The notes: generated by a model not told the origin, from the sequence alone. Numbered from the stretch's first letter, positions 41,206 through 64,000 are shown. The stretch: DNA of 64,000 nt from Candidatus Poribacteria bacterium (GCA_965197465.1 OZ240209.1:3738423-3802422), one strand, 5' to 3'. Numbers and translations: made by a program.

Positions 41206-42081
41206 ATGAAGGTCAAATTTTTGCTGATTGGTGTAATTGTCACTCTTGGCATGTTGGCTGGCTCAAATTATGCTGAGATAGATCCTTCCTGGATTGTGGC
41301 CATCTGGACGTTTGATGAGGGTTCTGGTGGAACAGCCGGAGATGCTTCTGGAAATGGGCATGATGGGGCAGTTCCGGGCGATGTCAAATGGGTTGATGGG
41401 CCCTTTGGCACGGCTCTGGAGTTTGACGGGAGCCCCATTCCTGACGCGGGAGGGCAACCTTTTTTAGACGGGAGCGTGGTTGAAGTTCCGTATCATGATG
41501 ACTTGAACCTGAGAGATGTTTACAGCTTGGTCGCCTGGGTGAAAGTCGATCCGGAAAATGCTTGCTGTGATCGCAATCCTGAACCGTGGGGCGGTATTAT
41601 TGTCAAAAGAAATCATGTCCACGATCCAGCGTCTGGCGGCGAAAGAAATTGGGGGCATTGGGGATTATGGGTTGGTGCTGCGGACCAAGGTGCAGTGGCC
41701 TTGTGGGGAAATATGGCAGGGCGCGGCGAAATTAATCAGTGGTGGTTGGCAAAGCGTAACCTTGCCGATGGAGAATGGCATCACGTCGCTGCCGTGTGGG
41801 ACCGATTTGAATTAATATTTTATGTAGATGGAGTGGATGATACGAGCGAAGATGGTAACGTAAGCGGCGACGCGATGGGCGTCATCGAACAACCGCTTAC
41901 CATCGGCGGTGACCTAAATGACCATTATTTCAGCGGCGCCATTGATGAGGCGGCAATTTTCAGTGAGCCGTTGAGCGAGGGTGATATCCAGGACGTTATG
42001 GGGGGACTGGGGCGGTATGCGACCGCTGTTGATTCTTATGGGAAAGTCGCCGTCACCTGGGCAAGCATCAAAGCCCAGTGA
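41206..42081 (+). CDS. secreted LamG-like (concanavalin A-like lectin/glucanase) domain protein
   Basis: Signal peptide. ...FDEGSGGTAGDASGNGHDGAV.GDVKWVDGPFGTALEFDG. C-terminal ...KVAVTWASIKAQ. Confidence 0.75.
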   Translation: MKVKFLLIGVIVTLGMLAGSNYAEIDPSWIVAIWTFDEGSGGTAGDASGNGHDGAVPGDVKWVDGPFGTALEFDGSPIPDAGGQPFLDGSVVEVPYHDDLNLRDVYSLVAWVKVDPENACCDRNPEPWGGIIVKRNHVHDPASGGERNWGHWGLWVGAADQGAVALWGNMAGRGEINQWWLAKRNLADGEWHHVAAVWDRFELIFYVDGVDDTSEDGNVSGDAMGVIEQPLTIGGDLNDHYFSGAIDEAAIFSEPLSEGDIQDVMGGLGRYATAVDSYGKVAVTWASIKAQ

Positions 42082-42237
42082 AAATATAGATATTTAAGGA
42101 GCTGAAGCTGTTGTAATATGGTATTCGAAACAACTCAAGCGTTAGACCTAACTGAAACGACACGTTTTTGATGCGGGTTGCCAATGTCGTCGAGCCCAGT
42201 GGTGTCGGTCACATGATTTCGAACCGCCCGATTTTAA

Positions 42238-42981
42238 TCAAGCGAAAGTTGGGCTTGCTCGGTTAGCATCAGTGAATGTTTGCGCGATTGCCGCTATTTC
42301 TGGGCTTCCCGATACCTGGCACTGATGAACGAATGAGAATTTCATCTGCCCCGCTGAGTGATAATTTTGTCCTCGTCGGGGCTTTTTTCTGCCTGCCAAC
42401 AGACGACTCCCCCAGAAGTATTGGCGTTCTGTCTTCTTCGGCGGTGTATATCTGATACAGAAGTAACGGTAGCGTGCGGCGCATTCATCGAGTGTGTTCC
42501 CTATCGAAAAGAACGCCGGGTGCCACTGTGTCAGTCCATCGTCGGTCAATCGGTCGTAGGTTCCGTAATTTGAGAACGTGTAGAAAAATCCTTCTCGTAT
42601 GCCTGCCGCTTTGGGGTTGGCGTGGATATCGCGCAAGGTATTGAGCGCACGTTGCTTGTCGTCTTTGTGGAATCCTGTGCTGTGATACCGTTGTTCCCAG
42701 AAATGCCCCTTTCGGTTGAGCATGCGGTTGACGCACATCGCCGTGTACCAGTTGAGCCAGTGCATGATTTGGGGCAAATCCAAAGGGGCTTTGGGTTCAA
42801 TCAGGTAGTGGATGTGGTTACTCATGATGCAAAAAAAGCCGTACTTCTCCTGAGCCCTTTTTATCGCGTACAGCAGCACCTCTCGGCATTCTTGGGACGT
42901 CAGGTGAAATTCACGGTTGTTGCAGCGAACGGTCACATGGTAGCAGTAATCAGGTTGCAAGTCTCGCTTTGGACGTGGCAT
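42238..42981 (-). CDS. IS200/IS605-like Y1 (HUH) transposase, REP-associated tyrosine transposase (RAYT)-like
   Basis: YHVTVRCNNREFHL...HIHYLIEP (HuH) ... Confidence 0.7.
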   Translation of the reverse strand: MPRPKRDLQPDYCYHVTVRCNNREFHLTSQECREVLLYAIKRAQEKYGFFCIMSNHIHYLIEPKAPLDLPQIMHWLNWYTAMCVNRMLNRKGHFWEQRYHSTGFHKDDKQRALNTLRDIHANPKAAGIREGFFYTFSNYGTYDRLTDDGLTQWHPAFFSIGNTLDECAARYRYFCIRYTPPKKTERQYFWGSRLLAGRKKPRRGQNYHSAGQMKFSFVHQCQVSGSPEIAAIAQTFTDANRASPTFA

Positions 42982-43098
42982 CTGTTGACCTCCCTCTCTT
43001 GTGGGTCGTGGCTAGCTGAGTCCTCCATTCCTTGAAACCCCAAGGCGGTGTTGAGCGTTTGTTGCTGGCGAAATTATAACATCTGTTAAAAAATCGGG

Positions 43099-43730
43099 GT
43101 GTTTCTGCCCCGTTCCGAGTGGTCGCAGTCGCCAAAATTGGGTTTGGGTGTAACTCCTGTGACTCTCGACGCGATTGACCGAGTCGCGTCTGCGCACCCG
43201 AAGTACAAAAAGGGGGATACTTTCGGACCGGGGAATATCGTAGAACGCGATCCGGTGTTCACGGAGCTGATCGATCACCCGAGGCATGTTGGATTTGCAT
43301 ATGATCTCTTTGGCGAACTACTCAAACTGCATCAAAGTCAGTTCTTCCTGCGTCCGCCCGGCGGCATACACTATAATATCCGAGCGCTGCCCTATGGCGT
43401 ATTTTCGCCGAAACTGCCGCTCCAGATCAAAATTGGCTACTAGCTGACCGATCTGCCGCATGAAAAAATGGGCAACCTGGTGGTGTTGCCGGGGAGTCAC
43501 CGACAACAGTAGTAGATGCCTACGACACCCACGAGAGCGTCCGCGGTGAGAAGGTTGTATGCGTGGGCAAGGGGACGATGACCGTTATGCACTCCAGCAT
43601 CTGGCACCGCGTTGAGCCCAACGATCGCGATGTCACGCGCTATAATATATTCACCGCTTACTGTCCATCTTGGGTGACGCCAGCGGATCGCTTTCACACA
43701 GCATAGGCTCTTAGCGTTTCTCCAAACCAA
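43099..43730 (+). pseudogene. PhyH family protein with in-frame TAG (43441-43443) inside the conserved motif and a frameshift after PGSH
   Basis: ...IKIGY-TAG-LTDLPHEKMGNLVVLPGSH, then a +2 frame carrying GTMTVMHSSIWHRVEPNDRDVTRYNIF. Confidence 0.6.
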
Positions 43731-44448
43731 ACGACGCCAAAGTATCTGGAATGAGCGCACAGTGCTCGCCCAACCGCTCGCGGATATCCTGCGTCAAAGA
43801 GCCTGCAATTTCATATTGAGGTGCAGTGTTTGGACAACTGTATCCCATGTGGATGACACGCCTGGGCGATTTTGAATAGTTTGCACATCCTCCATGCCAG
43901 GTGTCACCGTGAAGGAAAATTCCAGTTCCAGCCGTGCAGGTCACGTAGATTTCTCCAGCAACTGCCGCTTTGGAATCGTCCAGAACATCTCGGGGCCAAG
44001 GTTTTTTATGCGAGCCCGGCACAAGGCGAGTCGCACCGTTTTCTTCTGTCATGTCATCAAGTGCCCACACCACATTGAGGTATGCAGTACAATTCTTAAA
44101 GAACGATCGATCGGCATGGATCGCCTGATGAGGACGCGGATCACCAGGCATAGGATCGTGAAAATTCATAGCCTGCCAGCGCATATCATCTCCAATCACC
44201 AGCCTGGCCATTTCCAATGCAATCGGCTCGATTGCCAGCTCTTCTAGGACGCGACCTTTGCCAATGAGATTGCACAATCTGCGAGCTCCCGGAGAGTTAG
44301 CTCCTTCTGACCCTGCCTTTTCGCCCTCCAGATCATATCTCTTTTCCAGGGTATCTCTCAACGCTGCCAATCGTTGCACAGATAGCACATGTTCAACGAT
44401 CAAATAACCGTGTTTTTGAAAAAAATCCCATTGTTGCACAGAAATCAT
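43711..44448 (-). CDS. phytanoyl-CoA dioxygenase (PhyH) family protein
   Basis: MISVQQWDFFQKHGYLIVEHVL...HADRSF...LVPGSHK...HGDTWHGGCAN. Confidence 0.85.
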   Translation of the reverse strand: MISVQQWDFFQKHGYLIVEHVLSVQRLAALRDTLEKRYDLEGEKAGSEGANSPGARRLCNLIGKGRVLEELAIEPIALEMARLVIGDDMRWQAMNFHDPMPGDPRPHQAIHADRSFFKNCTAYLNVVWALDDMTEENGATRLVPGSHKKPWPRDVLDDSKAAVAGEIYVTCTAGTGIFLHGDTWHGGCANYSKSPRRVIHMGYSCPNTAPQYEIAGSLTQDIRERLGEHCALIPDTLASFGLEKR

Positions 44449-44497
44449 AATCTGGGTTTGAGCTGTTTTTTGTGCCCAAGATGCCGAGGTTTGATGT

Positions 44498-45146
44498 TTA
44501 CTTCACCCAAAAGCGGTAGCCGGCTGTAATGATAAAGGTGGGAACAACCGACGCCGCTCCGCCTGGTGGAGCGAAAGTTACAATGACTGGTAATTCAACA
44601 CGGATGTCCAATGCACTCTTAAAAAGTTCGTCCAATTCCAAGATTGAATACAGTACCGCCAGTAGAACCTTCTTCTGATTGTATACTACCTCCACCAGGC
44701 AGGAGTGCACCTAAGCTTTCGTCAGTAGGGCTTCTTTCTTCCCACTCCACATTTATGCTGCCTAGTCCTATCCCTGCCACGAAGAATAGCCTGGGTTTGC
44801 CGGGCGAATAATTAATCAGATAGTTTGCCATCATACCAAACACGAATGTATCGGTTTTCTCCTTGTAAATGTGTATCCCTTCAGTGCTCTCTTCTTCGAA
44901 GCTGCCACTGAAGAATAGTATACCTAACTCTAGAGCATTGCTCTGCAAGTCGATTAGATAATTACCGCCAATGCCGTACGCCAGCCCCCCGCTGATGTCT
45001 GTCCCAACCCCACCGCGAATTCCGATTTTTGCAGATTCCATCGAAGGGTCCACCTGGGCGATGCTAACTGTCGAAACGCTCAAGACCATGACCAGGATTA
45101 AAGCCAATATCCAGATATGTCCTTGCTTTGTATCTCGTACTTTCAT
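44498..45146 (-). pseudogene. outer-membrane beta-barrel protein (OmpA-like barrel) with frameshift around 44620-44710
   Basis: Signal peptide, alternating beta-strand pattern. C-terminal ...TAGYRF in a second frame. Confidence 0.5.
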
Positions 45147-45321
45147 GGTTGTTGTTTTCCTTATTGGGGTGACGGAATGGTATGTGCGACCAGATAAGGG
45201 TACAAACTAAAATAGTGTAATGATACCCCCTGAGACTCAACTACTTTGATGCTTTGAGACGTTCCCCGTTTTCTTCGATGCTCGCCCCATGGAGTTGGTA
45301 GTCCCGGGAGTTCACAATTCT

Positions 45322-48774: not shown

Positions 48775-49359
48775 CTAATCCCTTTTACCTAGCTTAATAT
48801 CCTGATGTCGAAGGCAAGCATACAACGTGGATCTCGCGATCGACAGGTGCTCACAGATCTGTGTGGTCGATAATTTGCCCTCCTTGTAAAGTTTCTCCGC
48901 AATCATCGCTTTGTCTTTAGCTTGCGACGATAGTCCCTTTGGGCGTCCACCTTTACGACCTCTGGCTCTGGCGGCTTTCAATCCTGCATGAGTCCGCTCT
49001 CGAATCATATCCGCCTCAAATTCAGCTAATGCAGCAAAGATGTGAAACGTTAGCTTGCCTTGGGGGGTGGTCGTGTCGATATTATCGTGAAGGCTCTTCA
49101 GTCCAGCACCTTTTTCTTGGATTTCGTTTACGAGTTGAACCAGGTCCTTAAGCGAACGACCCAGGCGGTCGAGTCTCCAAATGATAATGACATCTTTCGG
49201 GCGAAGATAGTCCAGAAGTTTCTGAAACTCGGGTCGTTCCTTGGTTCGACCGGTAATCTTCTCCTGATAAAACTTCTTGCATTTTGCTTTATTGAGAGCA
49301 TCAAGCTGAAGTGCGAGATCTTGGTCTTCAGTTGATACCCTGGCGTAACCTATTCGCAT
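48775..49359 (-). CDS. serine recombinase (resolvase/DNA invertase family)
   Basis: MRIGYARVSTEDQDLALQLDAL... (catalytic Ser) ...C-terminal HTH. 194 aa. Confidence 0.9.
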   Translation of the reverse strand: MRIGYARVSTEDQDLALQLDALNKAKCKKFYQEKITGRTKERPEFQKLLDYLRPKDVIIIWRLDRLGRSLKDLVQLVNEIQEKGAGLKSLHDNIDTTTPQGKLTFHIFAALAEFEADMIRERTHAGLKAARARGRKGGRPKGLSSQAKDKAMIAEKLYKEGKLSTTQICEHLSIARSTLYACLRHQDIKLGKRD

Positions 49360-49593: not shown

Positions 49594-50634
49594 CTACTCC
49601 CAATCCATCGGATCAATATCCTGCCACCGTTGGTCACTCTCGATCCACTTGTTCGGTGCGGTATCGATCTCGTATTTGGCAAATACTCGGTCAATCTTTC
49701 GCTTCACATCTTCTGTCAGAGTCCAGCCCAAGGCAGGCATATTATCTTCAACTTCTGCCACCGTTCGCGTGCCTACCAGTGCCGTGCTCACCGCAGGATG
49801 TGACAACACCCAGTTCAGTGCCAGCTGTGGCAGGCTTTTGCCCAGGTCTGCGGCAATGGCTTTGATTTCATTGACCGCCTGGATATTCCGTTGAAAGACC
49901 CCTGGCACGAACAACCGCAGCGAGGTTTGAGAGCCTCCGCCTTTTCGCCAATCTCCGCCCTCAAAAACGGTGTTCTCATTAAGCACACCGCTCAGTAATC
50001 CAAAAGCCAGTGATGCATAAACCATCATGCCGATATTATGTTCCTGGGCATAGGGAAAAATCCACTTCGCCTGGCGGCGGTCAAACATATTGTAGCCGTA
50101 TTGCAGCACATCTATTCTGCGTGCAGCCATACAGCGCTCAATTTCAGCCGGCGTAAAATTCGATGCCCCCACATACCGCACCTTGCCGGCCTGCACAAGT
50201 TCGTCGATGGCACCTAACGTTTCTTCAAACGGCGTATCCCGATCCGGCCAGTGTACCAGGTAAACATCGATATAATCCGTATTCAACAGCGCCAGACTCT
50301 GGTCGATGGCTTTGTGCATCATTTGCTTGCTGCTGTCTCGACCATGCTGATATCCAGTCCCGAACTTGGTCACTAAAATCACATCTTTCCGCCGATTACC
50401 CAGGGCGCGGCCAAGCAACTGTTCGGATGCGCCCATCCCATATTGCTGAGCCGTATCAAAACAGTTGATGCCAAGATCAATAGCCCGGTTGACAGCGGCG
50501 ACCATCTCCGATTCATCAAAATCCCCATACGAGCCAGCCATTCCCCAACACCCAAAACCAATGGGGGAAACTTCGAGCTCGGTCTGTCCAAACGGACGAT
50601 ATTCCATATATTTCTCCATGTCAAACCTCCGCAA
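49594..50634 (-). CDS. aldo/keto reductase
   Basis: GFGCWGMAGSYG...GINCFDTAQQYG...LVHWPD. Confidence 0.9.
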   Translation of the reverse strand: MRRFDMEKYMEYRPFGQTELEVSPIGFGCWGMAGSYGDFDESEMVAAVNRAIDLGINCFDTAQQYGMGASEQLLGRALGNRRKDVILVTKFGTGYQHGRDSSKQMMHKAIDQSLALLNTDYIDVYLVHWPDRDTPFEETLGAIDELVQAGKVRYVGASNFTPAEIERCMAARRIDVLQYGYNMFDRRQAKWIFPYAQEHNIGMMVYASLAFGLLSGVLNENTVFEGGDWRKGGGSQTSLRLFVPGVFQRNIQAVNEIKAIAADLGKSLPQLALNWVLSHPAVSTALVGTRTVAEVEDNMPALGWTLTEDVKRKIDRVFAKYEIDTAPNKWIESDQRWQDIDPMDWE

Positions 50635-50977
50635 ATGGCTCTGTCACGCTAACAGACGTGATGAGAGCCGTTTTCTTTTTCTTTGGCCAATTCTTGATTT
50701 CGAATTCTCGTTTCAGTGCTTCTGATCGGTTTTTACATGCTTCCGAGTAGACGACTCTAACCGGTTTATGCACCCTGGTATACGCACCGCCTTTCTTAGC
50801 CAGGTGCTCCTGGAATCGCCGTTGGACATCGGTGGTGATTCCAGTGTAGTAGCTTTTGTCTTCGCATTCGAGAATGTAAACGTAGTACATGCCACAAATC
50901 ATACCAGATGCGGTTTTGTGAATCCAACTTTTCCACAGCCCTTTGTCAATTCCGTCCAGTCCTCCCTTCTTTTTCAT
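50621..50977 (-). CDS. GIY-YIG nuclease family protein (YhbQ/COG2827-like); probable start at internal Met (MYYVYILEC)
   Basis: YYVYILECEDKSYYTGITTDVQRRFQEH...GAYTR...RSEALKREFEIKNW. Confidence 0.75.
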   Translation of the reverse strand: MKKKGGLDGIDKGLWKSWIHKTASGMICGMYYVYILECEDKSYYTGITTDVQRRFQEHLAKKGGAYTRVHKPVRVVYSEACKNRSEALKREFEIKNWPKKKKTALITSVSVTEPFAEV

Positions 50978-52536: not shown

Positions 52537-53517
52537 ATGGAAATTCCCAGAGAGAAGCTACTTGAAATCTACGAGCGGATGGCAACCATCCGCCAATTTG
52601 AAGAACGGGTGCGTGAAGAATTCGCCGCGAACCGTATCCCAGGCTTCGTCCATCTTTATGCGGGCGAGGAGGCAGTAGCGGTTGGCGTCTGCGCCCATTT
52701 GACTGACGAGGACATGATTACAAGCACCCACCGTGGTCACGGTCACTGTATTGCGAAGGGGGTTGATGTCAAGGCGATGATGGCCGAGTTGTACGGACGC
52801 GCAACTGGGGCCTGCAAAGGGAAGGGCGGCTCAATGCACATTGCTGACCTGGACCGGGGCATGCTCGGCGCTAACGGTATTGTCGGCGGGGGCATTCCGC
52901 TCGCGGCCGGCGCGGCCCTTAGTGCCCAGGTCCGTGGCACCCAAAACGTCGCTGTCAGCTTTTTCGGTGATGGCGGTTGCAACGAGGGTAGCTTCCACGA
53001 AGGTCTAAATCTAGCCGGTGTTTGGAATCTCCCTGCTATCTTCGTTGCGGAGAACAATGGATGGGCGCAGACGACCGGTAGCGACTACTCTGTGGCTGGT
53101 GCTGACATCGCTGGACGTGCGAGGGCCTACGGCATACGCGGCACTGTTGTTGATGGCCTAGACCTCTTCGACGTTTATGAAAAAGCTGGCGAGGCCATTG
53201 CTGCAGCACGTGCTGGAGAAGGCCCCGCGCTTTTGGAGTGCAAAACCTACCGCTTCTACGGCCACCACGAGGGCGATAAGCAGAGGTACAGAACGCAGGA
53301 GGAAGTCGAGGAATATCGCAAAAATCATTGTGTCATCAAAAATTTCCGCGCGCGTACGACCCAAGAACAGGTGTTGGCCGACGACGAACTGGATGCTATC
53401 GACAATAAAGTAGCAAGTGACATAGAAGCAGCTGTTGCGTACGCGGCCGATAGCCCATGGCCCGAACCTAGTGATGTGACGGACGATGTCTACGTGAACT
53501 ACAAGGAGGTTGTATAA
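52537..53517 (+). CDS. 2-oxoacid (pyruvate/acetoin) dehydrogenase E1 alpha subunit (TPP-binding)
   Basis: PGFVHLYAGEEAVAVG...GKGGSMH...GDGG.NEG. Intact 326 aa. Confidence 0.9.
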   Translation: MEIPREKLLEIYERMATIRQFEERVREEFAANRIPGFVHLYAGEEAVAVGVCAHLTDEDMITSTHRGHGHCIAKGVDVKAMMAELYGRATGACKGKGGSMHIADLDRGMLGANGIVGGGIPLAAGAALSAQVRGTQNVAVSFFGDGGCNEGSFHEGLNLAGVWNLPAIFVAENNGWAQTTGSDYSVAGADIAGRARAYGIRGTVVDGLDLFDVYEKAGEAIAAARAGEGPALLECKTYRFYGHHEGDKQRYRTQEEVEEYRKNHCVIKNFRARTTQEQVLADDELDAIDNKVASDIEAAVAYAADSPWPEPSDVTDDVYVNYKEVV

Positions 53518-54479
53518 TGAGCGAAGAACGAGAGCTTACCATGGGGGCAGCTGCTCGTGAGGCCCTGCATGATGAGATGGAGCGGGATTCCACGGTAGTC
53601 GTTATGGGCTTCGTCCATCTTTATGCGGGCCTGGTGGGCAAGTATGGGCGGAACCGTGTGCGCGATACGCCGATCAGTGAAGCAGGCTTCATCGGTGCGG
53701 CCATTGGCGCAGCAGCAACGGGACTCAGGCCTGTAGCCGCGCTTATGTGTGTCGATTTCTTTGGTATACCAATGGATCAGATTTTCAATCAGGGGGCCAA
53801 AATCCGTTACATGTTTGGTGGTAAGGCTAAAGTTCCTGTGGTTATCCGTGCAGCAATCGGGGGTGGGATTAATGCAGCCGCACAACACTCTCAGTGCCTC
53901 TACTCTATCTTCGCCCATATCCCAGGCCTGAAGGTCGTAGTCCCCTCCACGCCGTACGATGCCAAGGGTCTGTTGACTGCGGCCATACGCGATGACGATC
54001 TCGTGTTTTTCCTCGAACACAAGAGGCTGATGGGTTCGAAGGGGCACGTCCCTGAGGAATCCTATGTCGTCCCCTTCGGCGAAGCGTCCGTCCGGCGGGA
54101 GGGCAGCGATGTCACGGTTGTCGCCATCGCGAAGATGATCGATGTAGCGTTAGATGCAGCGGACGAGCTTGAAGCAGAAGGAGTAAGCGTCGAATTGATA
54201 GATCCACGCTCGTTAAGCCCGTTGGATGGGCGGACGATTCTAGATTCGGTCGAGAAAACCGGTCGCCTTGTGGTCGTGGACGAGGATACACCGAGATGTA
54301 ACCTCGCGACCGACATCACGGCGCTGGCAGCGGACGAGGCGTTCTATAGCCTTGAGGCACCGATTAAGCGCATCTGCCCGCCACACACGCCTGTGCCCTT
54401 CAGTCCTGTACTGGAGGCTGCCTATATCCCGTCGCAAGATCGGGTCGTGACGGCGATCCGGGAGGTGGTGGCTGCATGA
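53517..54479 (+). CDS. 2-oxoacid dehydrogenase E1 beta subunit (N-terminal motif atypical)
   Basis: ...RVRDTPISEAG...PSTPYDAKGLL...IDPRSLSPLD. ATGA start/stop overlap with E1 alpha. The GEDVGxYGG motif is replaced by FVHLYAGLVG. Confidence 0.8.
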   Translation: MSEERELTMGAAAREALHDEMERDSTVVVMGFVHLYAGLVGKYGRNRVRDTPISEAGFIGAAIGAAATGLRPVAALMCVDFFGIPMDQIFNQGAKIRYMFGGKAKVPVVIRAAIGGGINAAAQHSQCLYSIFAHIPGLKVVVPSTPYDAKGLLTAAIRDDDLVFFLEHKRLMGSKGHVPEESYVVPFGEASVRREGSDVTVVAIAKMIDVALDAADELEAEGVSVELIDPRSLSPLDGRTILDSVEKTGRLVVVDEDTPRCNLATDITALAADEAFYSLEAPIKRICPPHTPVPFSPVLEAAYIPSQDRVVTAIREVVAA

Positions 54480-54577: not shown

Positions 54578-54952
54578 GTAAACGTGGGAGAACCTTACAA
54601 TTCTCCGAATTTTGAGTATTGGCTAACAAGTGTAAAAGCGAGGAAGCCAAGATGATTGTCAGGTAGTCGGATGGGTCATAGTACCGGAGAAGCGAAGTAA
54701 TGCTCGCAGAGGGAAGGACCCTGGGCAGAATGCCCCTTTTCATCGACACGTTATGAGGTCATCAGAACCTCAATAAATAACGGCAACAAACGTGAGAAGG
54801 ATAGCCTTTCGAGGCGAACCATTCTGTCTTGAGCCCATTGCCTGAATCGGGCACGATGGGTTCTAACTGGGGAGAAGCTCAGGTGACTGGGCTTCTCTAC
54901 CACCCGCACTTTCCCCCGTTTTGGGACAGACTCCCATCAGTGAGCTTTGCAT

Positions 54953-55387
54953 CTAGACTGCTAGGTTTTGGGATATAGTTTGCCGCCAAGGTGGCGCACG
55001 AAACCTGAGCAGTTGTTCCATGGTCCACAGATAGTCGGTGATGCCAGCGGCCATTGCTGGGGTGCGCTGTTGCTGGTCATAAATACCTCGCCACAAGGCA
55101 AATATTGTATCAGTGCCTCCCATCTCCTGTCCGTGCCGGAAGGCTTGTTGCACAACGCGCAGCATATCGGCAATATCATCACGATAATGACTCTCCGGAT
55201 CCTTGGTGAACCACTTAGGGGCTAAGCCATCAGATGAAAATCCATAAACAGGTTGACCATCGATCTCCACGGTCAAACGGACAAATAGACAGGGCAGCGC
55301 GGTCATCACGGCAATTCCGTAGCGAAACGGCATCCGCGTTTTCATATTAAGAATGTACAGATCAAGAACCAGAAGTGAAATAGTCAT
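54953..55387 (-). CDS. hypothetical protein
   Basis: 144-aa ORF, 4-bp overlap with the MetE-like gene. No recognisable motifs. Confidence 0.4.
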
Positions 55388-56391
55388 ATGCGCCCCAAAA
55401 ATTGATCTCGGCCTCGAACTAAGCTCTCCATTTTTTTGTCGGCAACGCTACGCGGTAACATCCAGAAGCCGCAGTCTGGGTGAACCCAACGCACCCGCTC
55501 TGCACCAAGCACCTTGACGGCCTTTTCAATGCTCTTAGCCACTTCGTCAACGGTCTCGACTTCATTATCCTTGATGTCTATAACGCCGACTCCCAGGGCA
55601 ATGTCCTGGCGTAAGTCGCAGAAAAGCTCCAACTCGTCGAAGCCTCGACGGGCAAACTCAAGAATCAGGTGATCGACGTCGAGATTATTGAGAAATGGCA
55701 GCAGATTACGCCAGAAGCCTTGCTGAATGGTTTGTCCACCGTAGTTGCCAAAGCATAAATGCAATCCCTTTTGGCCCTGGACGGCATCGAGGACATGATT
55801 GATAGGCTTATAGGCCCAGCTTGCATCTTTGGGATGCCCAGTTAAATTGGCTTCGTCAATCTGTATCACCGTAGCGTCAATTTCGGCTACTTGCCGGCGC
55901 AGCACCTCAGCAATCTCGTTTGTTAGGGTTGGCAGGTCGTGGTAATGCTGGTCGAGCAGAGTCTTGGCCAGCATATACGGTGAGGTCAGCGTAAACTTGA
56001 GGGGATGGCCGGTTAACGGTTTAACGAGTTGCCACGCGGCCGGCAAATTGAGCAACCCTTCCCCAATCCTGTCTCGTACCACGCCGGCCGGTTGTGCTCG
56101 AAAAGCCATGCCGGACTGAGTTCGAAACGTACTCAATTCCTCTCGGCTCAAATGTGTGCTGATGCCGGCCATAGGACCGATGAAATAGTCAATCATACCA
56201 TTGGTTTCGGGGTGCATAATATTAAAGCGCGATAGTTCGCCATCGGCCAGTAGATCAAGACCGGCTAATTCCTGCGTCTTGAGCACCACCAGAATAGCGT
56301 CATGAAGATTAGGCGTTGACGGCATGGCCGCCAGCCATGCCGGTATAGGATAGCTGCCAACCACGGTGGTCTTTATAATGGGTTCAGTCAC
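55384..56391 (-). CDS. cobalamin-independent methionine synthase (MetE C-terminal domain)-like protein
   Basis: [13 protein letters not shown]... UroD/MetE-like fold, 335 aa. Confidence 0.65.
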
Positions 56392-56850
56392 GGCTCTAAT
56401 TCCTCCACGATAGTCTCTATATCAACAGAAACGACTTAATGGTTAGCCGATTTGTCCAATTTCGTCAAGAACTTTAAGATAGTTTCCAGACCAGAGCCGA
56501 TGTGCTGATGAATCTGATAGACGCGATTTGCTCAAACACACACGCTAAATCTATCGCCGAACTGTCGCTGAACCCCATCTTCGGCTATCAGTACCCAAGC
56601 ATCTATGACGCCATTGACCAGTTGCGACAATTTGTGGCAATCCGTGTAATCCACAGGTTGTAAAATCCGTTTTAGTCCGGTCGAATCCGTTTTAAAAATG
56701 TCCATCAACAACCCACCACTTATAGTTCGAACTTGACCTAAAAATATAAAAAATGACACCCGACTTCTAAAAAACAGAGCTGCAGGCAAACTCCTCCTCT
56801 ACCTCTCCAGCAGAGCAGGGTTCGACACATTTTACAAGGTCAAGTTGTTC

Positions 56851-58092
56851 CTACTCCATAGATTTGTCCAAAGTCCAATATGAATAAGATACTGCGAAAA
56901 ATAGCCGTTGAGAATAGTTTTCACGGAGTGGTTTGTTTTTATGCCAAAGATTTTTCCACAAGCCATTATTTTCAACCAGTTGTTTGAATTGCGCTATTAT
57001 TTTGAGAACTATTTCGTAAACTGTGTCAAGATTTAGAATTCTGGGTTTATCAAGTTTTAGAGGGTAGCGATCGCTAAATACCTTCGCAATTTCTGCCCAT
57101 TTGATTAAGCCATGTGGATCTAAACTTAAGTCATAATGGCGACTGGGTACATCATGAATAATGTCTAATAAAGTTTGAAAAGCCTCACTACTTGACAAAA
57201 CTTGTGCTCTGAGTTCATTTTTATCGCGTTTAACTTTCGCTGCCCAAATTTGAGCGATATGTCGATTAACTTTGTCTCGAAGATATTGATTGCGTGATGC
57301 AGCATCACGCGGACGTTTATGGATAACTTCCCGTGGGACGTAGGCAATCGTGCACGCATGGCCCGCCGCCCGCCAAATCAGATCCGCCCAACGCTCGATT
57401 GTTATGATCTCCTGCGTAGCAATGTGATAGGTCTGGTTCGCCGTCTCAGGCGTATCAAGGGCGCGGATGAACGCCATCGCCGCATCAGCGGAATAGAGGG
57501 TGCGAAACAGTCCGCGGTGCTCCAGCGGAATGACAACGCCGCGACCATCCATCGCTCGCTGCACCCACCACCACATCCGCCCGGTCGGGTCGTCCCAGCC
57601 CATGACCGCGGGAATGCGGATGATTGTGTACGGAATGTCGCTATTCTCCTGAAGCCACTTTTCGCAGTGTCTTTTACCGACGCCGTATGGGTCTTCGCCT
57701 TCGGGGTAGGTATAGTCAATCGACGCCCAATCCACGACCGACTCCTGAAAGGTGCAATGCTTGGCAAAGTCCACCGCACCTTCCAGATACACCGATCCGG
57801 TGCTGACCATCAGATAACGACCGACATTCCCGCTGAAGGCTTCCACGGCTGATTCGACGTCTTCTTTCCGGTAAGCCTGGGTATCAATGACGGCGTCAAA
57901 CGACTTTTCCTTCAGCCTTGCTGTGAAGTCCGACCGATCATTGCGGTCTCCCTGGATATGTTCGACCCCATCCCACCATTCTGGGCGGGCGCCTCCCCTG
58001 GAAAATACCGTGACCTTATCCCCGCGTTCAAGCAGTCTCTGCACGACAATCCGGCCCATGTATCGTGTGCCGCCGATGATCAGAATGTCCAT
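56851..58092 (-). CDS. NAD-dependent epimerase/dehydratase (SDR) with an AT-rich ~150-aa C-terminal extension of foreign composition
   Basis: MDILIIGGTRYMGRIVVQRLL... GC drops sharply 3' of ~57330. The extension contains a GCGATCGC (HIP1-type) site at 57067-57074. Confidence 0.6.
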   Translation of the reverse strand: MDILIIGGTRYMGRIVVQRLLERGDKVTVFSRGGARPEWWDGVEHIQGDRNDRSDFTARLKEKSFDAVIDTQAYRKEDVESAVEAFSGNVGRYLMVSTGSVYLEGAVDFAKHCTFQESVVDWASIDYTYPEGEDPYGVGKRHCEKWLQENSDIPYTIIRIPAVMGWDDPTGRMWWWVQRAMDGRGVVIPLEHRGLFRTLYSADAAMAFIRALDTPETANQTYHIATQEIITIERWADLIWRAAGHACTIAYVPREVIHKRPRDAASRNQYLRDKVNRHIAQIWAAKVKRDKNELRAQVLSSSEAFQTLLDIIHDVPSRHYDLSLDPHGLIKWAEIAKVFSDRYPLKLDKPRILNLDTVYEIVLKIIAQFKQLVENNGLWKNLWHKNKPLRENYSQRLFFAVSYSYWTLDKSME

Positions 58093-58131
58093 AGCAACTC
58101 CTTTTCCCCAACGAGCCGATGATGCCTGGCG

Positions 58132-58824
58132 TCAAATCTCGGGCTCCGCCTCCGACTTATCCTGCGGGTGATAGTTGATAACGCGCCGTCCGTGTTCTAA
58201 ATCGTAAAGCGGCCAGGTACTGTCTGAAACCCCAAACACAACCTCGAACTTCACGCCGGGATGCGTGAGAGCATGCTCGAACACACGAGCCGCGTCACCG
58301 TGACTGAGTTGATGCGGGTGTGTGGGAAGGTCACGGTCGTGCTTGAAATTGCCAATCCGAACCGCCACAAATTCCATGTCGAATCGCGCGGAATACATAT
58401 ACCCCAGACTTTCCCCAAACACCTTGCTGATCGAATAGTAGCTCTCCGGTCGCGGCGTCATATCAACCGTCCGCATGACGTCTTTGGGATAGGGCGCAAG
58501 CAGCCCAGCCCGACTGGCGAAAGCGATTCGTCGCACGCCGTTTTGCCGCGCCGCTTCAAAGACATTGTATGTGCCGATGAAATTGTTCGGGAGTATCTCC
58601 TCCCAGGGCGCCCCGCTCGACGGATTGCCCGCGAGGTGAATCACTGCCTCCATGTCCTGCGTGGCTATAAGGACGCCATCGAAGTCAGTGATATCCCCAA
58701 CGACTGCGTCTTCGAGTTCGGGCGTCGGGACGCGGTCAAAACCCCGCAGAGAATACCTGTCTTTCAAACCTTTTACAACGGCCGAGCCCACCCGACCGGC
58801 CGCGCCGGTGACGAGAATTTTCAT
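58132..58824 (-). CDS. NAD(P)-dependent epimerase/dehydratase family oxidoreductase
   Basis: MKILVTGAAGRVGSAVV... Confidence 0.8.
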   Translation of the reverse strand: MKILVTGAAGRVGSAVVKGLKDRYSLRGFDRVPTPELEDAVVGDITDFDGVLIATQDMEAVIHLAGNPSSGAPWEEILPNNFIGTYNVFEAARQNGVRRIAFASRAGLLAPYPKDVMRTVDMTPRPESYYSISKVFGESLGYMYSARFDMEFVAVRIGNFKHDRDLPTHPHQLSHGDAARVFEHALTHPGVKFEVVFGVSDSTWPLYDLEHGRRVINYHPQDKSEAEPEI

Positions 58825-58838
58825 TCGCTGCTCCTTTT

Positions 58839-59732
58839 CTAGCGCAAAATTTCTCTGAGTCTTGGCAAGAAGATTTCCGTATCCCGATCATGAATCTCGC
58901 CCTGCCAGGCGTTGTTCGTTTCTACGCTGGAACGGTCGTACGATTCCTGGATAAGCTCTGGCAGATCCAGTTGGTGGAACCGCGTGACAAAATATCCGTC
59001 GTCCTGGAGTCGAATCTCCCGAAATCCCATCGGGAAACCGATTAGGCATGCCGTGTCAACGACCAGGAAATCACGGTACATCCGGATACGGTTCGTGTGC
59101 TTATGCCCCGTGAACAATGCGACAATGGCGGGACTCTCCTTCACGGTTTCCAGCAGACGGTCTGCGCCGCTGAGGACGCCGCTCTGGTCTTCGTAGCCTC
59201 GCAGCACCCATGTATGGAGTACCAGCAATATCGCGCATCGATCGGCATAGGCTTGTTCCGCTGCTTCACGGAGTCCGTTATCAAGCGCGTCGGTCCAAAC
59301 GCCGTTGCCTTCCTCGATAGGGTCGCACTGATGGTAGATGTTTGCGAGCGCGAGTCGAAGACGAGGCCCCGCATCAACGACATCGATTGTTTCCGGGATG
59401 GGGAATCTTGCCGCGAACGGTTCAAAAGATCCGCTTTGTGCATCAGAGTCGTGATTGCCCGGAACGTAATATGTTGGCGCCTCGAACCCGGAAAATACCT
59501 CTGCGACCTCCTCAATCGATTGCAGATAGGTCGTCCACGGCAGCTCAAAGGAGCTGCCGCCGCAGAGAAAGTCCCCGCCGTGAACGATGAAGTCGGGTTT
59601 GAGTGGATTGACCGCCGGCACGATTGCATCCAGAACCGTTCTACTTTGCGTCAGCATCTTCGGCGCCCCGTAGTCTTTCGGCGCACCGGGGTAGTGATGA
59701 CTGTCTGTCAAAAAAACAAAACGAACGGACAT
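58839..59732 (-). CDS. metallophosphoesterase (calcineurin-like)
   Basis: FVFLTDSHH...HGGDF...GNHD... Confidence 0.85.
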   Translation of the reverse strand: MSVRFVFLTDSHHYPGAPKDYGAPKMLTQSRTVLDAIVPAVNPLKPDFIVHGGDFLCGGSSFELPWTTYLQSIEEVAEVFSGFEAPTYYVPGNHDSDAQSGSFEPFAARFPIPETIDVVDAGPRLRLALANIYHQCDPIEEGNGVWTDALDNGLREAAEQAYADRCAILLVLHTWVLRGYEDQSGVLSGADRLLETVKESPAIVALFTGHKHTNRIRMYRDFLVVDTACLIGFPMGFREIRLQDDGYFVTRFHQLDLPELIQESYDRSSVETNNAWQGEIHDRDTEIFLPRLREILR

Positions 59733-60039
59733 AGCTGCTCCAAATAAAGACGCCCTTTGAAAAGCGGATCGGTTCTCTTTTCAAAGGGCGTTGGTGTTAG
59801 ATATGTGGCCCGCGTTCGCGGATAATTCTGAGCGCCAGATCCGGATCGATCTGGAAAATCATCTCAGGCTCGATCTTACAGTGGCCCGGCAGATCAAATC
59901 CGGCGACGGCGCTACGTGCATGCCAAAAGGAACATACTTGTAGAAGAGCGTGCGACGCTCGCCGCTCCCCGCCCACGGAATTGTACCATGTTTGAGCTTC
60001 TCAGTGAACAAAATGTCAACAGAAATCATCCAGATGATC

Positions 60040-62079
60040 CTAACCCTCATTCAACTTCCAGCCCGGCAACGAAATATCAAACTTGCGCTCTGGCGCATAA
60101 ATCCGTTCGCCGGGAGGATAGGGACGATCCTGCGTTACGATATAAACGGCCCCCTCGTGAACATAGACAATTTCATCTCGAACGTCGCCCACCACATCCT
60201 CGGTCAACCCATATGCCCACTCGAATGGCAGCCCTTCACATACCGGGCGCACCACCTTTCTGCCCTTCGCGTCATAGAAACCGAACGCCTCCCTGGAAGA
60301 ATAGAGGAACAGCAGCTCTTCGCCGTCGCCAGTCCAGTTCACTGGCGGGCCCCCCTGGCTGATTGTGTCGGGCTCGAACCGCGTCAGCGGATCTCCCTGG
60401 CCGCTCACCAGATTCAAGATCCCGTAGTTTTCCCAGCGATTCCCCATCCACATTTCCAAACCCGGCAGATCCGGCCGGAAATTCCCCGCATAGATCCCCT
60501 GCACATGACCAAACCGGTGATGCCTCAACAGCGCCCCGGTGCGCGCATCCACTAAGAAAAATCCCGGATCGCTGCCGGCAATCCCAATCTCGGGACCATT
60601 GCTTTCATCGCCGTCCAATTCCCCAAACGCGGCGTGATCGACATGCCCGGCCCCCCCTGAATCTTCGATGTATTCCGCGCCTTCCATCAGCCACAGGAGG
60701 TTCCCGTCCCCATCGTAAAGCTGATACCCCGGCAGGATCTCATCGCGGCCATCCCCGTCCACGTCATAGAACCACATGTACATCCCATACCACGACTCGT
60801 GCGCATCCTGACGCCACCGCAGATTCAAGGCCTCATCGTAGGCCCAGATGGAGTACCCGGTTCCCTCGCCGTCGCCATCCCTCAGGATCAGATCCTGCGC
60901 CTTCTCTGTCTTGCGAATTCGGCACGGCCACAAGGCCCCTAGCTTGTGCAAACACGGCCTCACGCTCTTTCCCCGATACCCGCGATACGGCCCTGTCTTT
61001 GGCAGTTCTGTCTCGGCCGTTACCTCCCCTGTCCGTCCGCTGACCATCCGCAGCAGATCCCCTTCGACCCCAATGAAGTCCTCCACACCGTCCCCATCCA
61101 GATCGTGTACTACCTTGTGTTTTTTATCTAAACCCGCCGCCGCGGCATACACCTGATCCCACTGCTTTTCTCCCTCCACATCCAGGCACACCACCCGAAG
61201 GCCCGATTCCGTCTCCTGCTGCAGCACGATCTCCTTCTTCCCGGCCCCACGGAAATCTCCCAACCGCACCTCGCAGGGCCAGTATTCGCTTACGTCGATC
61301 CGCTTCCACAGCACCGGCTTCGGGTATTTTTCCGCTGCCTCCGCTACCTCCCGGTCATAGGCACTCTGACGGCTTGCGTATGCCGCCCGGGCGGGCTCCG
61401 ACGCGGTAACCCGTACCCCATACATCCGGCTGCGCGTGTTGGTCCGGATGCCAACCTTGCCCGTCTGAAACTTCTCGTCATAGGCGACAAATATTTGCTT
61501 TCCATCCACGTAGCACGCCAACCGCTCTCCTTCGCACACCGCCCTCAGGTGGTAATACCGACTTCGGTCCACCCCATTCCGGTAATCGGCGAGCATGGTC
61601 CATGCCTCATCCTCACGGCGATACAGCACAAAGCGCTCATATCCCTCTATGGCGAAGATATAATACCGCCGCAGATCCTGATATCGCACCATCAGGCCTG
61701 AGAGGCCCACAATGGCGTGTGGTTCGTCATTGTTCGGCTGGGTAAACGCGTTCAGTTGCCGAACAAAGGCCTCCACTGTGTAATCCGCCCACAGCGGCTC
61801 CCCTGTTGTAAGGCAGCGGCCGGTTTTGTTGTGATGTTCCAGCACCGGCACCTCCCCATCCCGAACCACCCGATAGGAACTTGGCCGTTTCCCCTGCTTG
61901 GGGCCCCATTCTAGGGCATTGTTCCAGCCCTTGAAAACCTTCTCCTCCACGCGTTTATCCGGCTCGCGATAGTCCAGAATTTTGCCCGCCGCGCATTCTG
62001 ACAGATCGATCTCTGCCAGCACCACATTTGACTTGCTGTCTTGGGCCACTTCGCCCCCTTTCTGAATGGGGTAGTGCAC
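60040..62079 (-). CDS. DUF1080 (3-keto-disaccharide hydrolase-like) domain + Ca-binding FG-GAP-like beta-propeller repeat protein (putative glycan-active enzyme)
   Basis: TGKVGIRTNTRSRMYGVRV (DUF1080-like). Repeated DxDGDG motifs (DLDGDGVEDF, YDVDGDGRDEI, GELDGDESNG). Confidence 0.5.
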   Translation of the reverse strand: MHYPIQKGGEVAQDSKSNVVLAEIDLSECAAGKILDYREPDKRVEEKVFKGWNNALEWGPKQGKRPSSYRVVRDGEVPVLEHHNKTGRCLTTGEPLWADYTVEAFVRQLNAFTQPNNDEPHAIVGLSGLMVRYQDLRRYYIFAIEGYERFVLYRREDEAWTMLADYRNGVDRSRYYHLRAVCEGERLACYVDGKQIFVAYDEKFQTGKVGIRTNTRSRMYGVRVTASEPARAAYASRQSAYDREVAEAAEKYPKPVLWKRIDVSEYWPCEVRLGDFRGAGKKEIVLQQETESGLRVVCLDVEGEKQWDQVYAAAAGLDKKHKVVHDLDGDGVEDFIGVEGDLLRMVSGRTGEVTAETELPKTGPYRGYRGKSVRPCLHKLGALWPCRIRKTEKAQDLILRDGDGEGTGYSIWAYDEALNLRWRQDAHESWYGMYMWFYDVDGDGRDEILPGYQLYDGDGNLLWLMEGAEYIEDSGGAGHVDHAAFGELDGDESNGPEIGIAGSDPGFFLVDARTGALLRHHRFGHVQGIYAGNFRPDLPGLEMWMGNRWENYGILNLVSGQGDPLTRFEPDTISQGGPPVNWTGDGEELLFLYSSREAFGFYDAKGRKVVRPVCEGLPFEWAYGLTEDVVGDVRDEIVYVHEGAVYIVTQDRPYPPGERIYAPERKFDISLPGWKLNEG

Positions 62080-62119
62080 TACATGTAATGCTATGAAATG
62101 TAGTGCACTACCGGATTCT

Positions 62120-62857
62120 TTATTGGGTTTTGATTAAGCCCCAAGTTTGGGCGAGCTTATATTGGGGATTCACGGCGGTGGCTTGATTGAACGCCTGCGC
62201 TATCTCGTCTGCTGTCCGTACGATATTCGAAATACGGAGATTGTCCAAAACACCCACATAGAACCCTTTAGTCCCATTCTCCGCACCGATGAAAAGGTCA
62301 CTTTCAACGCCAAGGTCCCCACTCTGTTCCGTTTCCTTAAGGAACTGACCATCCAGATAATATATTAGCTTATTACCGTCATAGGTAGCGGCATGGTATT
62401 GCCACGTACCAAGAGGCGCGGGCTCGTCTTGCAAAAGAAGAGCTTTCACTTCGGGCGGGGTGACAAAATGGGGTCCAAAAGCGTCGTTAATCTGGACAAA
62501 CTCATATCCCAACCGCGGACCACCCGCCCTCTTATCGAAGACAAATTGCTCCTCGGCCCCCGCCTCGAGTTTCAGCGTCCATGCCTCAACGGTGATGTTT
62601 TGCGTGATATCCAGCGTCCCGGATTTTGGAACCTGGATCATTGATGCCCCATCGAATTCGTAACCGTTACCGAACTTCCCTGGGACCAGATTGATCTGGC
62701 CGTTAATCGTTCCATCGTTGCCTGCCCCTGAAAGGTCTTGGACAGTATCGCCTTGGATGCCATCACACGGAAAGTACAATACTGTCTGTGAGAACCCAAC
62801 AACGGGAGCAACCCCTAAAAGCAATGCGACTGCAAGAAGAAAAGCTAATCTCTTCAT
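62120..62857 (-). CDS. secreted LamG-like domain protein (paralog of 41206 and 63564 genes)
   Basis: MKRLAFLLAVALLLG signal peptide. AAGGAGG SD. C-terminal ...QYKLAQTWGLIKTQ. Confidence 0.75.
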   Translation of the reverse strand: MKRLAFLLAVALLLGVAPVVGFSQTVLYFPCDGIQGDTVQDLSGAGNDGTINGQINLVPGKFGNGYEFDGASMIQVPKSGTLDITQNITVEAWTLKLEAGAEEQFVFDKRAGGPRLGYEFVQINDAFGPHFVTPPEVKALLLQDEPAPLGTWQYHAATYDGNKLIYYLDGQFLKETEQSGDLGVESDLFIGAENGTKGFYVGVLDNLRISNIVRTADEIAQAFNQATAVNPQYKLAQTWGLIKTQ

Positions 62858-63289
62858 CACGAAACCCTCCTTTAATATGACTACGCGATGGTTTTTAATT
62901 GTGTAGAGCATTATGAACTAGGTAACAACGGTAATTATTGACCGTTCCTTTCTACATGGAAATAGATGCAATTTATATGGAAATATAAATGCACAATCCA
63001 TGCGATTCCTTACGCATAGTTCCCGATGTTCTTGCTCCATATGGATAACAAGTCCCATCTCGAAAGTTTTCGGGACAGCCATCGAGATTATAACGTAATT
63101 TCTCCTTGCGGAGATATACTCTAACGGAACAGCCAATCAGAGATAATTTCCGCCATATAGACAGAAATTTTAGTTTTCCGATTACGCACAAGGTTTTACG
63201 CCATACAGGTATTGCACATGGCAACCTCGTACCTTGTCAAAGATCGAAAAGTTTTTATGAGTATAGCGGAGCTAAGTCATTTAGTCAAG

Positions 63290-63511
63290 TACTTTCCACT
63301 GATGGCAGGCGGAGATGTTCAAGTCGGCCAAGCAATCGGAGAAACCGATGACATCGCCTCGGCACCTGTCGGCGAAGGCTTCACGCCGGATGACCTGGCG
63401 GCGTCCTTCTTCCGGAACATCGGCATCGACCCGCAAACAAAGTATCAAACCAATGTGGGACGTCCTGTGACGCTCGTGCGAGATGGGAGGCCAATTCAAC
63501 AGTTGTTCTGA
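63290..63511 (+). pseudogene. DUF1501 family protein, C-terminal fragment only
   Basis: AGGDVQVGQAIGETDD...DLAASFFRNIGIDPQTKY...GRPVTLVRDGRPIQQL matches the DUF1501 C-terminus. Confidence 0.45.
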
Positions 63512-63563
63512 GTCTTCTCCGCGCACTACCCATCCTTACATCTTAAGGACTACCCCGGATTCT

Positions 63564-64000
63564 TTATTGGGTTTTGATTAAGCCCCAAGTTTGGGCGAGC
63601 TTCAATTCGGGATTCACGGCGGCGATTCGTGATACTTTATTGTACGCCGCCTTTATCTCGTCTGCTGTCCGTGCGATCTTCGAAATACGGATATTGTCCA
63701 AAACACCCGTATAGGGGTGTCTAGTCCCAGCCGGGAAACCTTCCGTACCGATGAAAAGGTCACTTTCAACGCCAAGGTCCCCAATCTGATCCGTTTCCTT
63801 AAGGAACTCACCATCCAGATAATATTTCATCGTCTTACCGTCATAGGTAGCGGCATGGTATTGCCACGTACCAATAGGCGCGGGCTCGTCTTGGTTAAGA
63901 ACAGCTTTCTTTCCGGGGGTCGCCATCATGAATCCAAAAACGTTGTCAACCTGGAAAAGCTCATATCCCAACCGCGGATTACCCGCCCTCTTATCGAGGA
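63564..64000 (-). CDS. LamG-like domain protein, recent tandem paralog of 62120..62857 (partial, runs off window end)
   Basis: ...PAPIGTWQYHAATYDGKTMKYYLDGEFLKET...VNPELKLAQTWGLIKTQ. The downstream DNA is also near-identical to the region at 62100. Confidence 0.7.
   Translation of the reverse strand, partial: LDKRAGNPRLGYELFQVDNVFGFMMATPGKKAVLNQDEPAPIGTWQYHAATYDGKTMKYYLDGEFLKETDQIGDLGVESDLFIGTEGFPAGTRHPYTGVLDNIRISKIARTADEIKAAYNKVSRIAAVNPELKLAQTWGLIKTQ

Follow-up and report, generated by a model that had tools for sequence, protein, structure and literature searches.

A short C-terminal peptide shared by unrelated, predicted exported proteins of Poribacteria and homologous to the segment ahead of the type IX C-terminal domain: a candidate sorting tag

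Introduction

The LPXTG and PEP-CTERM signals and the C-terminal domain (CTD) associated with type IX secretion systems (T9SS) have each revealed a dedicated envelope-assembly machine. The current study concerns a peptide of approximately 18 residues at the C-terminus of three LamG-domain proteins encoded on 64,000 nucleotides of DNA from a Candidatus Poribacteria bacterium (GCA_965197465.1, OZ240209.1:3738423-3802422; this whole stretch is referred to as the window), which an earlier note had put forward as a candidate sorting or processing tag. Poribacteria constitute a dominant uncultivated phylum of sponge symbionts, the surface biology of which is essentially unknown.

Crossing of the outer membrane in known T9SSs requires a folded CTD, and PorU is a sortase-like transpeptidase that works at the N-terminal edge of this domain. 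We know of no conserved motif upstream of the CTD that has been described for Bacteroidota. Binding of the type A CTD to the SprA/PorV translocon occurs in the folded state, the seven-stranded sandwich burying approximately 1850 Å2 (PMC10994853), and PorU cuts the CTD 67–88 residues from the C-terminus and can act as a sortase that joins the new end to anionic lipopolysaccharide (LPS) (PMC11285876). The poribacterial peptide resembles the type A CTD (TIGR04183/PF18962) in being a putative signal at the C-terminus of Sec-exported proteins that belong to many unrelated families, and its relation to the T9SS attachment complex (PorU/PorV/PorZ/PorQ) lies in its fusion ahead of the CTD in some cargo and in the occurrence of a PorV/PorQ family protein in the phylum. 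In contrast to the CTD, a 67–108-residue, seven-stranded sandwich that binds the translocon in its folded state, the peptide comprises only some 18 residues that are unstructured in models, and, unlike T9SS cargo, most of its carriers lack any CTD.

Short, conserved, near-C-terminal motifs that are lineage-specific, present in multiple copies and distributed over many exported families are also known as the LPXTG, PEP-CTERM, GlyGly-CTERM and PGF-CTERM signals, and in the poribacterial case, as for sortase and exosortase signals, the motif would be retained and the downstream piece discarded. Sortase and exosortase signals are tripartite (motif, transmembrane (TM) helix and basic cluster), whereas the poribacterial motif is followed by 1–7 residues only, with nothing membrane-spanning, and thus does not have this organisation. 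The amphipathic anchors of Escherichia coli PBP5 and PBP6 are likewise short C-terminal appendages of Sec-exported proteins without a TM segment, although the poribacterial peptide differs from these in lacking an amphipathic signal and in being conserved residue by residue.

Results

The three window LamG proteins end as the earlier note had claimed, with the gene at 41206 on the plus strand and those at 62120 and 63564 on the minus strand, the strands being added here (Table 1). Their C-termini fit K[LV]A[QV]TW[GA][LS]IK[TA]Q, and a six-frame scan of the whole window found no other open reading frame (ORF) with such an ending. This dodecapeptide is the core of a linear peptide of approximately 18 residues, φ-[AP]-V-[ED]-P-x-[GD]-K-L-A-T-T-W-G-x-I-K followed by 1–7 further residues, which Poribacteria add to many unrelated, small, predicted Sec-exported single-domain proteins, the LamG proteins of the window being ordinary cargo.

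Assignment of the window carriers to LamG is based on both a family hidden Markov model (HMM) match above the gathering score (27.6 bits for Laminin_G_3, PF13385) and a concanavalin-A-like β-sandwich. An AlphaFold model of the 62120 protein (14-sequence alignment) placed residues 23–226 in a sandwich with pLDDT >90 and left the tail, residues 227–245, at pLDDT <50, while Foldseek searches with this model returned ConA-like or lectin-like jelly rolls (E ~1e-11). No Pfam or NCBIfam matches outside LamG were retained for the three proteins, the NCBIfam TafC matches being weak and partial (30 bits against a cutoff of 410) and disregarded. The Laminin_G_3 profile stops 25–29 residues short of the C-terminus in all three. 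One might have taken the shared ending for the last β-strand of the LamG fold or for the product of a single recent duplication, as would be natural if nothing beyond the three window genes were considered; this explanation is refuted, and we give it practically no weight, since the profile ends before the tail, the modelled sandwich is complete without it, approximately half of the carriers (27 further families) are not LamG proteins and the tail is found across the whole phylum.

The view of these proteins as one paralog family holds in so far as all three match Laminin_G_3, but the 41206 protein shares only 29% identity with the other two and is thus a distant paralog of the 62120/63564 pair. 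The latter do represent a tandem duplication (87% DNA identity, identical tail codons), although the near-identical 3′ flanks attributed to them extend for only ~10 nt past the stop codon. The ORF of the 62120 gene could begin at 62911, its likely start being 62857 (MKRLAF), as in homologs P0001–P0012, while the full-length counterpart of the 63564 gene encodes 279 aa in a 98%-identical contig (L089) of a metagenome-assembled genome (MAG). The ORF at 24382 is an N-terminal LamG fragment, as previously noted. Several homologs of the tandem pair (P0002–P0009) resemble mosaics of the N-terminal half of one copy and the C-terminal half of the other, a pattern suggestive of exchange between the two copies within the population by recombination or gene conversion.

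Table 1. Coordinates of the LamG genes, candidate tags and T9SS-type domains of the window.
Feature	Position	Strand	Evidence
T9SS type A CTD of M36 metalloprotease 462..4469	462..743	-	Pfam FlgD_ig/Por_Secre_tail; TIGR04183 31.2 bits
Truncated LamG fragment: signal peptide and ~75 domain residues, tag absent	24382..24684	+	Stop; no frame continues the domain
Tag motif in long-form context, AVEPFGLRLTTLGQVKR, inside FG-GAP protein 32604..34229	33891..33941	+	Directly before CTD
T9SS type A CTD (β-sandwich) of FG-GAP protein	33942..34229	+	Pfam FlgD_ig; TIGR04183 22.8 bits, borderline; AlphaFold
Predicted exported LamG (Laminin_G_3) protein, 291 aa, divergent tag carrier	41206..42081	+	ORF; PF13385 71.9 bits, residues 92-262
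Signal peptide of 41206..42081 protein	~41206-41277	+	
LamG profile match in 41206..42081 gene	41479-41991	+	Pfam
C-terminal tag, divergent variant AVDSYGKVAVTWASIKAQ	42025..42078, stop codon 42079-42081	+	Translation; weak but positional tail-HMM match
Predicted exported LamG protein, 245 aa from MKRLAF	62120..62857	-	PF13385 70.2 bits; AlphaFold; Foldseek
C-terminal tag AVNPQYKLAQTWGLIKTQ of 62120 protein	62123..62176	-	Translation; AlphaFold tail outside sandwich
Tandem paralog of 62120 gene; N-terminus beyond window edge	63564..>64000	-	PF13385 52.2 bits; 87% DNA identity
C-terminal tag AVNPELKLAQTWGLIKTQ of 63564 protein	63567..63620	-	Translation

A scan of one genome for each GTDB species with a degenerate DNA pattern encoding KLAxTWGxIK recovered at least 114 loci, among them ~101 in named Poribacteria, nine in other MAGs, one in a 'Deltaproteobacteria' MAG and two in Flavobacteria. 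In 115 of the 117 matches listed the motif lies 1–12 codons (nearly always 1–7) ahead of a stop codon, in ORFs of ~210–340 aa; the sole internal matches listed are the two from Flavobacteria, which look like chance. As more than 110 genes in other genomes carry the same decapeptide at their extreme C-terminal end, its recurrence is far beyond chance. The motif is not confined to recent duplicates; such confinement had been named in the earlier note as something that would speak against a tag. A search of 1.84e9 cluster representatives with a profile of the last ~33 residues gave 149 clusters at E≤1e-3, nearly all of them matching at the extreme C-terminus of ~250–270-aa proteins or fragments. 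Close homologs of the window LamG proteins keep KLAQTWG[LS]IKTQ, and relatives at 31–53% identity keep KLAATWG.., KLTALWGAIK or KLATMWCSIK, followed by a few extra residues. Applied to every ORF in the collected loci and in the window, a tail HMM added ~70 C-terminal variants (e.g. KVATTWG, KLTTTWG, KLSATWG, TTWAxLK and KLPxTWG) and matched poribacterial ORFs 183 times at the C-terminus and never internally. At least four strict-motif genes, in addition to relaxed variants, occur in one assembly; two to four tail genes are present at 45 of 106 tail-gene loci, and unrelated families are mixed in 23.

The window itself fits this distribution: positions 54874–64000 are 97.8–98.8% identical to L089, a contig of 'Candidatus Poribacteria bacterium RHO2_bin_20', and the gene content is consistent with Poribacteria, as PhyH dioxygenases, GH32 and an ankyrin ORF are encoded and T9SS-type CTDs occur on some of the proteins. 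In the 'Deltaproteobacteria' MAG (L031:2639-3717, minus strand), a 28-codon frame ending VHPRGKLATTWGEIKGSR follows the stop codon of a 343-aa esterase-like ORF, and represents either a frameshifted gene for an esterase with the tag or a mis-binned poribacterial contig.

The carriers were examined as a sample of 164 tail-bearing proteins within 0.93 Mb of poribacterial DNA. Following removal of the tails, these proteins fell into 28 clusters without mutual BLAST similarity (83 LamG proteins, then 22, 12, 6, 4, 4 and so on), so that the tag cannot be regarded, as it was initially, as a property of a LamG paralog family: LamG proteins make up roughly half of the sample, the remainder being spread over at least 27 further unrelated families. 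Pfam matches (PF13385, PF06439, PF02018, PF00754, PF07676, PF03781, PF07081, and a dockerin with a peptidase) identify LamG, 3-keto-disaccharide hydrolase/DUF1080, CBM_4_9, F5/8 type C, PD40 propeller, FGE-sulfatase and DUF1349 families as well as a metallopeptidase with a dockerin, while at least ten clusters are without any Pfam match. A hydrophobic, signal-like segment at the N-terminus, called by a hydrophobicity heuristic alone, is present in 159 of the 164 carriers, the remaining five being truncated or mis-started ORFs, and three carriers look like lipoproteins. Export of the carriers is thus predicted from sequence, and this sets them apart from the cargo of encapsulins and bacterial microcompartments, which is cytoplasmic and without signal peptides; these systems otherwise offer a parallel, as a modular terminal peptide of ~10–20 residues on unrelated cargo is read there by one common protein receptor. 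Modularity, conservation, C-terminal position and signal peptides are hallmarks of a sorting or targeting tag.

As most carriers are lectin- or carbohydrate-binding-module-like single domains, it might be asked whether the tail instead serves self-association or docking, as a Trp-containing, foldon-like β-hairpin that multimerises lectin-like domains for avidity or plugs them into a scaffold; its β-branched residues and central Gly would suit a hairpin, and cohesin and dockerin domains are present in the same phylum. We consider this improbable, given that the single-chain AlphaFold model has no confident structure for the tail, that enzymes and propellers also carry it and that its strand amphipathicity is no higher than that of shuffled sequence.

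Some observations on individual carriers and their surroundings may be added. Fusions of an ECF sigma factor, a TM segment and an extracytoplasmic propeller of ~800 aa recur near tag genes (L064, L110, L018, L060 and L026; cluster C7), and P0122 is a single ORF joining ECF sigma, TM segment, a DUF1080-like domain and the tag. A type I dockerin occurs on a tag-bearing poribacterial protein (L111:5319-6242), and the M36 metalloprotease of the window (462-4469, minus strand) combines PPC and cohesin domains with its T9SS type A CTD, which together hints at cohesin-dockerin assemblies on the cell surface.

The consensus derived from 109 unique tails, [LFT]-[APDS]-V-[EDSQ]-P-x-[GD]-K-L-A-[TVA]-T-W-G-x-I-K, shows almost no variation at K, L, A, T, W, G, I and K. 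Val at −5 (106 of 109) and Pro at −3 (80 of 109) are conserved although neither was part of the search pattern. The extension past IK is 1–7 residues long and never absent (three residues in 96 and two in 36 of the 164 tails), is mostly basic or polar, usually carries a net charge of +1 and mostly ends in R, Y/F, K or Q. Every synonymous codon occurs at the fixed residues, so that it is the peptide, rather than a repeat in the DNA, that is under selection; a DNA-level repeat or gene-conversion artefact is ruled out on the same ground. Over 15 aa, tail identity is 66% among LamG paralogs, against 26% for their domains, and 62% between unrelated families. None of the Pfam-A and NCBIfam 20.0 models covers the tail, a PDB profile search gave only spurious matches to designed repeat proteins, and in the literature searched neither the motif strings nor anything on T9SS-type sorting or LamG in Poribacteria was found; the tag is not described in Pfam, NCBIfam or the literature searched.

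The earlier note was correct in considering the tail too short for a TM helix, as nothing TM-like lies in the last 30 aa of the 164 tails (best 15-aa Kyte-Doolittle window: mean 0.40, highest single value 1.82). An outer-membrane β-signal is not apparent either, the last residue being mostly R/Q/K and the carriers soluble domains. A different mode of anchoring would be autonomous retention in the envelope, independent of the T9SS, whereby the tail binds peptidoglycan, LPS or the membrane non-covalently in the manner of PBP5 and holds small periplasmic proteins. It would accommodate carriers exported without a CTD, several of which (PD40, FGE-sulfatase, DUF1080) are plausibly periplasmic, the low-confidence helix of AlphaFold at residues 231–244 of the 62120 protein and the mostly +1 charge of the extension; yet the tails have a helical hydrophobic moment of 0.26, compared with 0.29 ± 0.14 in shuffled sequence, and a mean hydrophobicity of −0.09, the near-invariance of eight residues contrasts with lipid-binding helices, in which the pattern is conserved and the residues are not, β-branched T and V are abundant in the motif, which also contains G and P, and the fixed fusion of the motif to a CTD would be unexplained. 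Retention of this kind thus appears rather unlikely, and a PBP5-like amphipathic anchor in particular is ruled out by the hydrophobic moment.

The strict near-C-terminal position and the obligatory short extension could also be expected of a signal for processing or turnover, with the tail recognised and removed, for example by a Prc/Ctp-type protease, and thus acting as a propeptide or degron by which exported proteins are regulated in their activity or lifetime. Tail-specific proteases, however, read the last few, usually non-polar residues, and these are variable here and mostly R/Q/K, the conserved block sits upstream of them, and in the long forms described below the motif is internal, 96 residues from the end; we therefore hold such a role to be doubtful.

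The tail had been described as unlike the T9SS CTD of other secreted proteins of the window, and in this respect the earlier note has to be revised: the same peptide directly precedes a type A CTD in poribacterial cargo, including the FG-GAP protein 32604..34229, in which AVEPFGLRLTTLGQVKR passes directly into TALYQNFPNPFNPETW (Table 1; the TIGR04183 cutoff is 23 bits). A query with the 116-aa region of motif and CTD gave 1061 clusters, some of them named 'T9SS type A sorting domain-containing protein [Candidatus Poribacteria]' at NCBI, and in ~108 of the best 120 of these 1061 the order is [AS]VEPxG..T[LWF]GxIKR, a spacer of exactly six residues (RTALLQ) and NFPNPFNPETW. The motif also precedes the CTD in L088, and several long forms have W, e.g. 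VEPAGKQMVTWGEVKK and LSTWGRIKE. Comparison of the short-tail and pre-CTD profiles using hhalign gave a probability of 95.3% (E 2e-8, 24 columns). Homology thus links the tail with the segment lying immediately upstream of the CTD and not with the CTD sandwich; the tail itself has only ~18 aa, no HMM match and no predicted fold. AlphaFold modelling of the extended CTD (121-sequence alignment) gave the sandwich pLDDT >90 and the motif ~45–53 with no secondary structure, so that the motif is, according to the model, a linear peptide ahead of the folded domain.

A CTD-only architecture exists as well, since the M36 protease 462..4469 lacks the motif upstream of its CTD, and a CTD-only query from this protein found it absent in 74 of 77 CTDs with enough upstream sequence. 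Three architectures thus occur (motif alone, motif with CTD, and CTD alone), which makes the motif a module that can be separated from the CTD. Two poribacterial long-CTD classes (P0164-P0283 versus P0284-P0403) were observed: NFPNPFNPETW[LM]PY is usually preceded by the tag motif, and the NYPNPFNPETWIPY class is usually without it, ..P.ETALL[QP] preceding instead.

Homology to the segment preceding the CTD raises the possibility that the short tails are what is left, without function, of T9SS CTDs that nonsense mutations removed. This is effectively refuted and retains only a slight residual probability, because conservation is stricter in the short tails than in the long-form motif (W invariant in the former, L in 85 of 108 of the latter), the stop codon is narrowly confined in its position, residues do not change where synonymous sites do, the independent carriers number in the hundreds and belong to 28 families, and no CTD leftovers lie downstream of the stops. 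Only four NPFNP-type CTDs occur in the 0.93 Mb, and as none stands behind a tail, a CTD hidden downstream of tail stop codons is ruled out.

Discussion

The suggestion of a sorting or processing tag is borne out by modularity, location outside the LamG fold, strictly C-terminal occurrence and carriage on signal-peptide proteins, while the function itself is inferred, as is all that goes further than a modular tag that is homologous to the pre-CTD peptide and sits at the C-terminus of predicted exported proteins; this includes export as such, the existence of a partner, cleavage or attachment, and the final location. The tag is not expected to be a signal for outer-membrane translocation, given that a disordered peptide of 18 residues cannot replace the CTD at the translocon. 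In the long-form window cargo, the motif, ending 96 residues from the C-terminus, lies upstream of the PorU cut range (67–88) and would consequently stay on the mature protein.

We propose that the tag is a residue-specific recognition element for a late envelope-sorting step, read by a shared protein partner, which could be a PorU-type sortase or peptidase, a PorV/PorQ-type barrel or another receptor, and which would retain, attach or process the tagged protein at the cell envelope. Whether the tag is a recognition peptide for a late sorting or attachment step, read by a common partner, is in our estimation an evenly balanced question. A protein partner is favoured over a lipid anchor by a hydrophobic moment no higher than that of shuffled sequence. 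The most specific version would be sortase-like, the conserved motif being the retained P-side and the leaving group the 1–7-residue extension in short forms and RTALLQ with the CTD in long forms: an enzyme, possibly a poribacterial counterpart of PorU, would cut after ...TTWGxIK, drop the short stub or the CTD and couple dozens of exported proteins per genome to an envelope acceptor. Residue-specific conservation, the lack of amphipathicity and the obligatory short extension after IK suggest such a scheme, which is tentative and, on balance, rather unlikely to hold in full; docking to a receptor without a covalent bond agrees with the data nearly as well.

Several points weigh against the proposal of a late sorting step as a whole. 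To our knowledge, PorU of Porphyromonas gingivalis has no strong P-side sequence motif, and the sortase analogy is thus without precedent within the T9SS. Carriers with short tails have no CTD that could bring them to the reader enzyme, should this be located at the surface, and most sampled long CTDs lack the motif, which is accordingly not required for T9SS-type sorting. The signal peptides of the carriers were called heuristically, as stated above. No sorting partner was found near tail genes in 114 neighbourhoods, PorU, PorZ and SprA not being among the proteins searched for, and clustering of the 800 ORFs of the 114 loci revealed no gene family that accompanies tail genes across contexts. 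Divergent PorV/PorQ-like barrel genes (L021:4311-5288 and L106:6756-7601; 61–63 bits, below the family cutoff of 90) stand divergently beside a LamG-tag gene in one orthologous context only.

The frequent neighbours of tail genes represent general poribacterial expansions, namely PD40, PhyH, Gfo/Idh/MocA, sulfatases and ECF-sigma fusions, and no candidate for a sorting enzyme was seen in the 114 neighbourhoods, a genome-wide search not having been made. Among the components of the T9SS machinery, the search in the phylum covered the PorV/PorQ family, a bona fide member of which is encoded by a Poribacteria MAG (L112:5959-6903; 216 bits against the cutoff of 90). Inside the window there are no T9SS machinery genes.

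The tag marks a large set of predicted exported lectin-like, carbohydrate-binding and enzymatic proteins of Poribacteria, for which the tail HMM provides an in-silico handle. If it directs attachment, it would define a surface or periplasmic 'tagged proteome' and thereby a candidate set of proteins interacting with host or glycans. Fusion of the tag to a CTD suggests that the signals for translocation and attachment can be separate modules, which bears on T9SS-type sorting outside Bacteroidota, and the sortase-like version of the proposal, if true, would constitute the first type IX-style attachment step with its own sequence motif, independent of the CTD and outside the Bacteroidota/FCB group.

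Additional features of the window

Directly downstream of the LamG gene 41206..42081 lies an IS200-like Y1 transposase (Pfam; 42238-42981, minus strand). Further mobile-element-type genes situated between the LamG genes are a serine-recombinase-like and a GIY-YIG-like ORF (48775-49359 and 50621-50977, both minus strand). The gene 60040..62079 (minus strand) begins 40 nt downstream of the LamG gene 62120..62857 and, in view of this gap and the common strand, the two are probably co-transcribed; its 679-aa product has weak RGL11 C-terminal, FG-GAP and DUF1080-like matches and no obvious signal peptide or tag.

A 1.58-kb segment of the window (56449-58028), containing most of ORF 56851..58092, is missing from the otherwise 98%-identical L089, the difference being an indel between close relatives; the ORF has an NAD-dependent epimerase-like N-terminus and an odd C-terminal half. 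A 2-oxo-acid dehydrogenase E1 alpha/beta pair at 36236-38193 (minus strand) is apparently split into four overlapping ORFs, reflecting either frameshifts or a pseudogene, and an intact E1 alpha/beta pair is located 15 kb away at 52537-54479 (plus strand).

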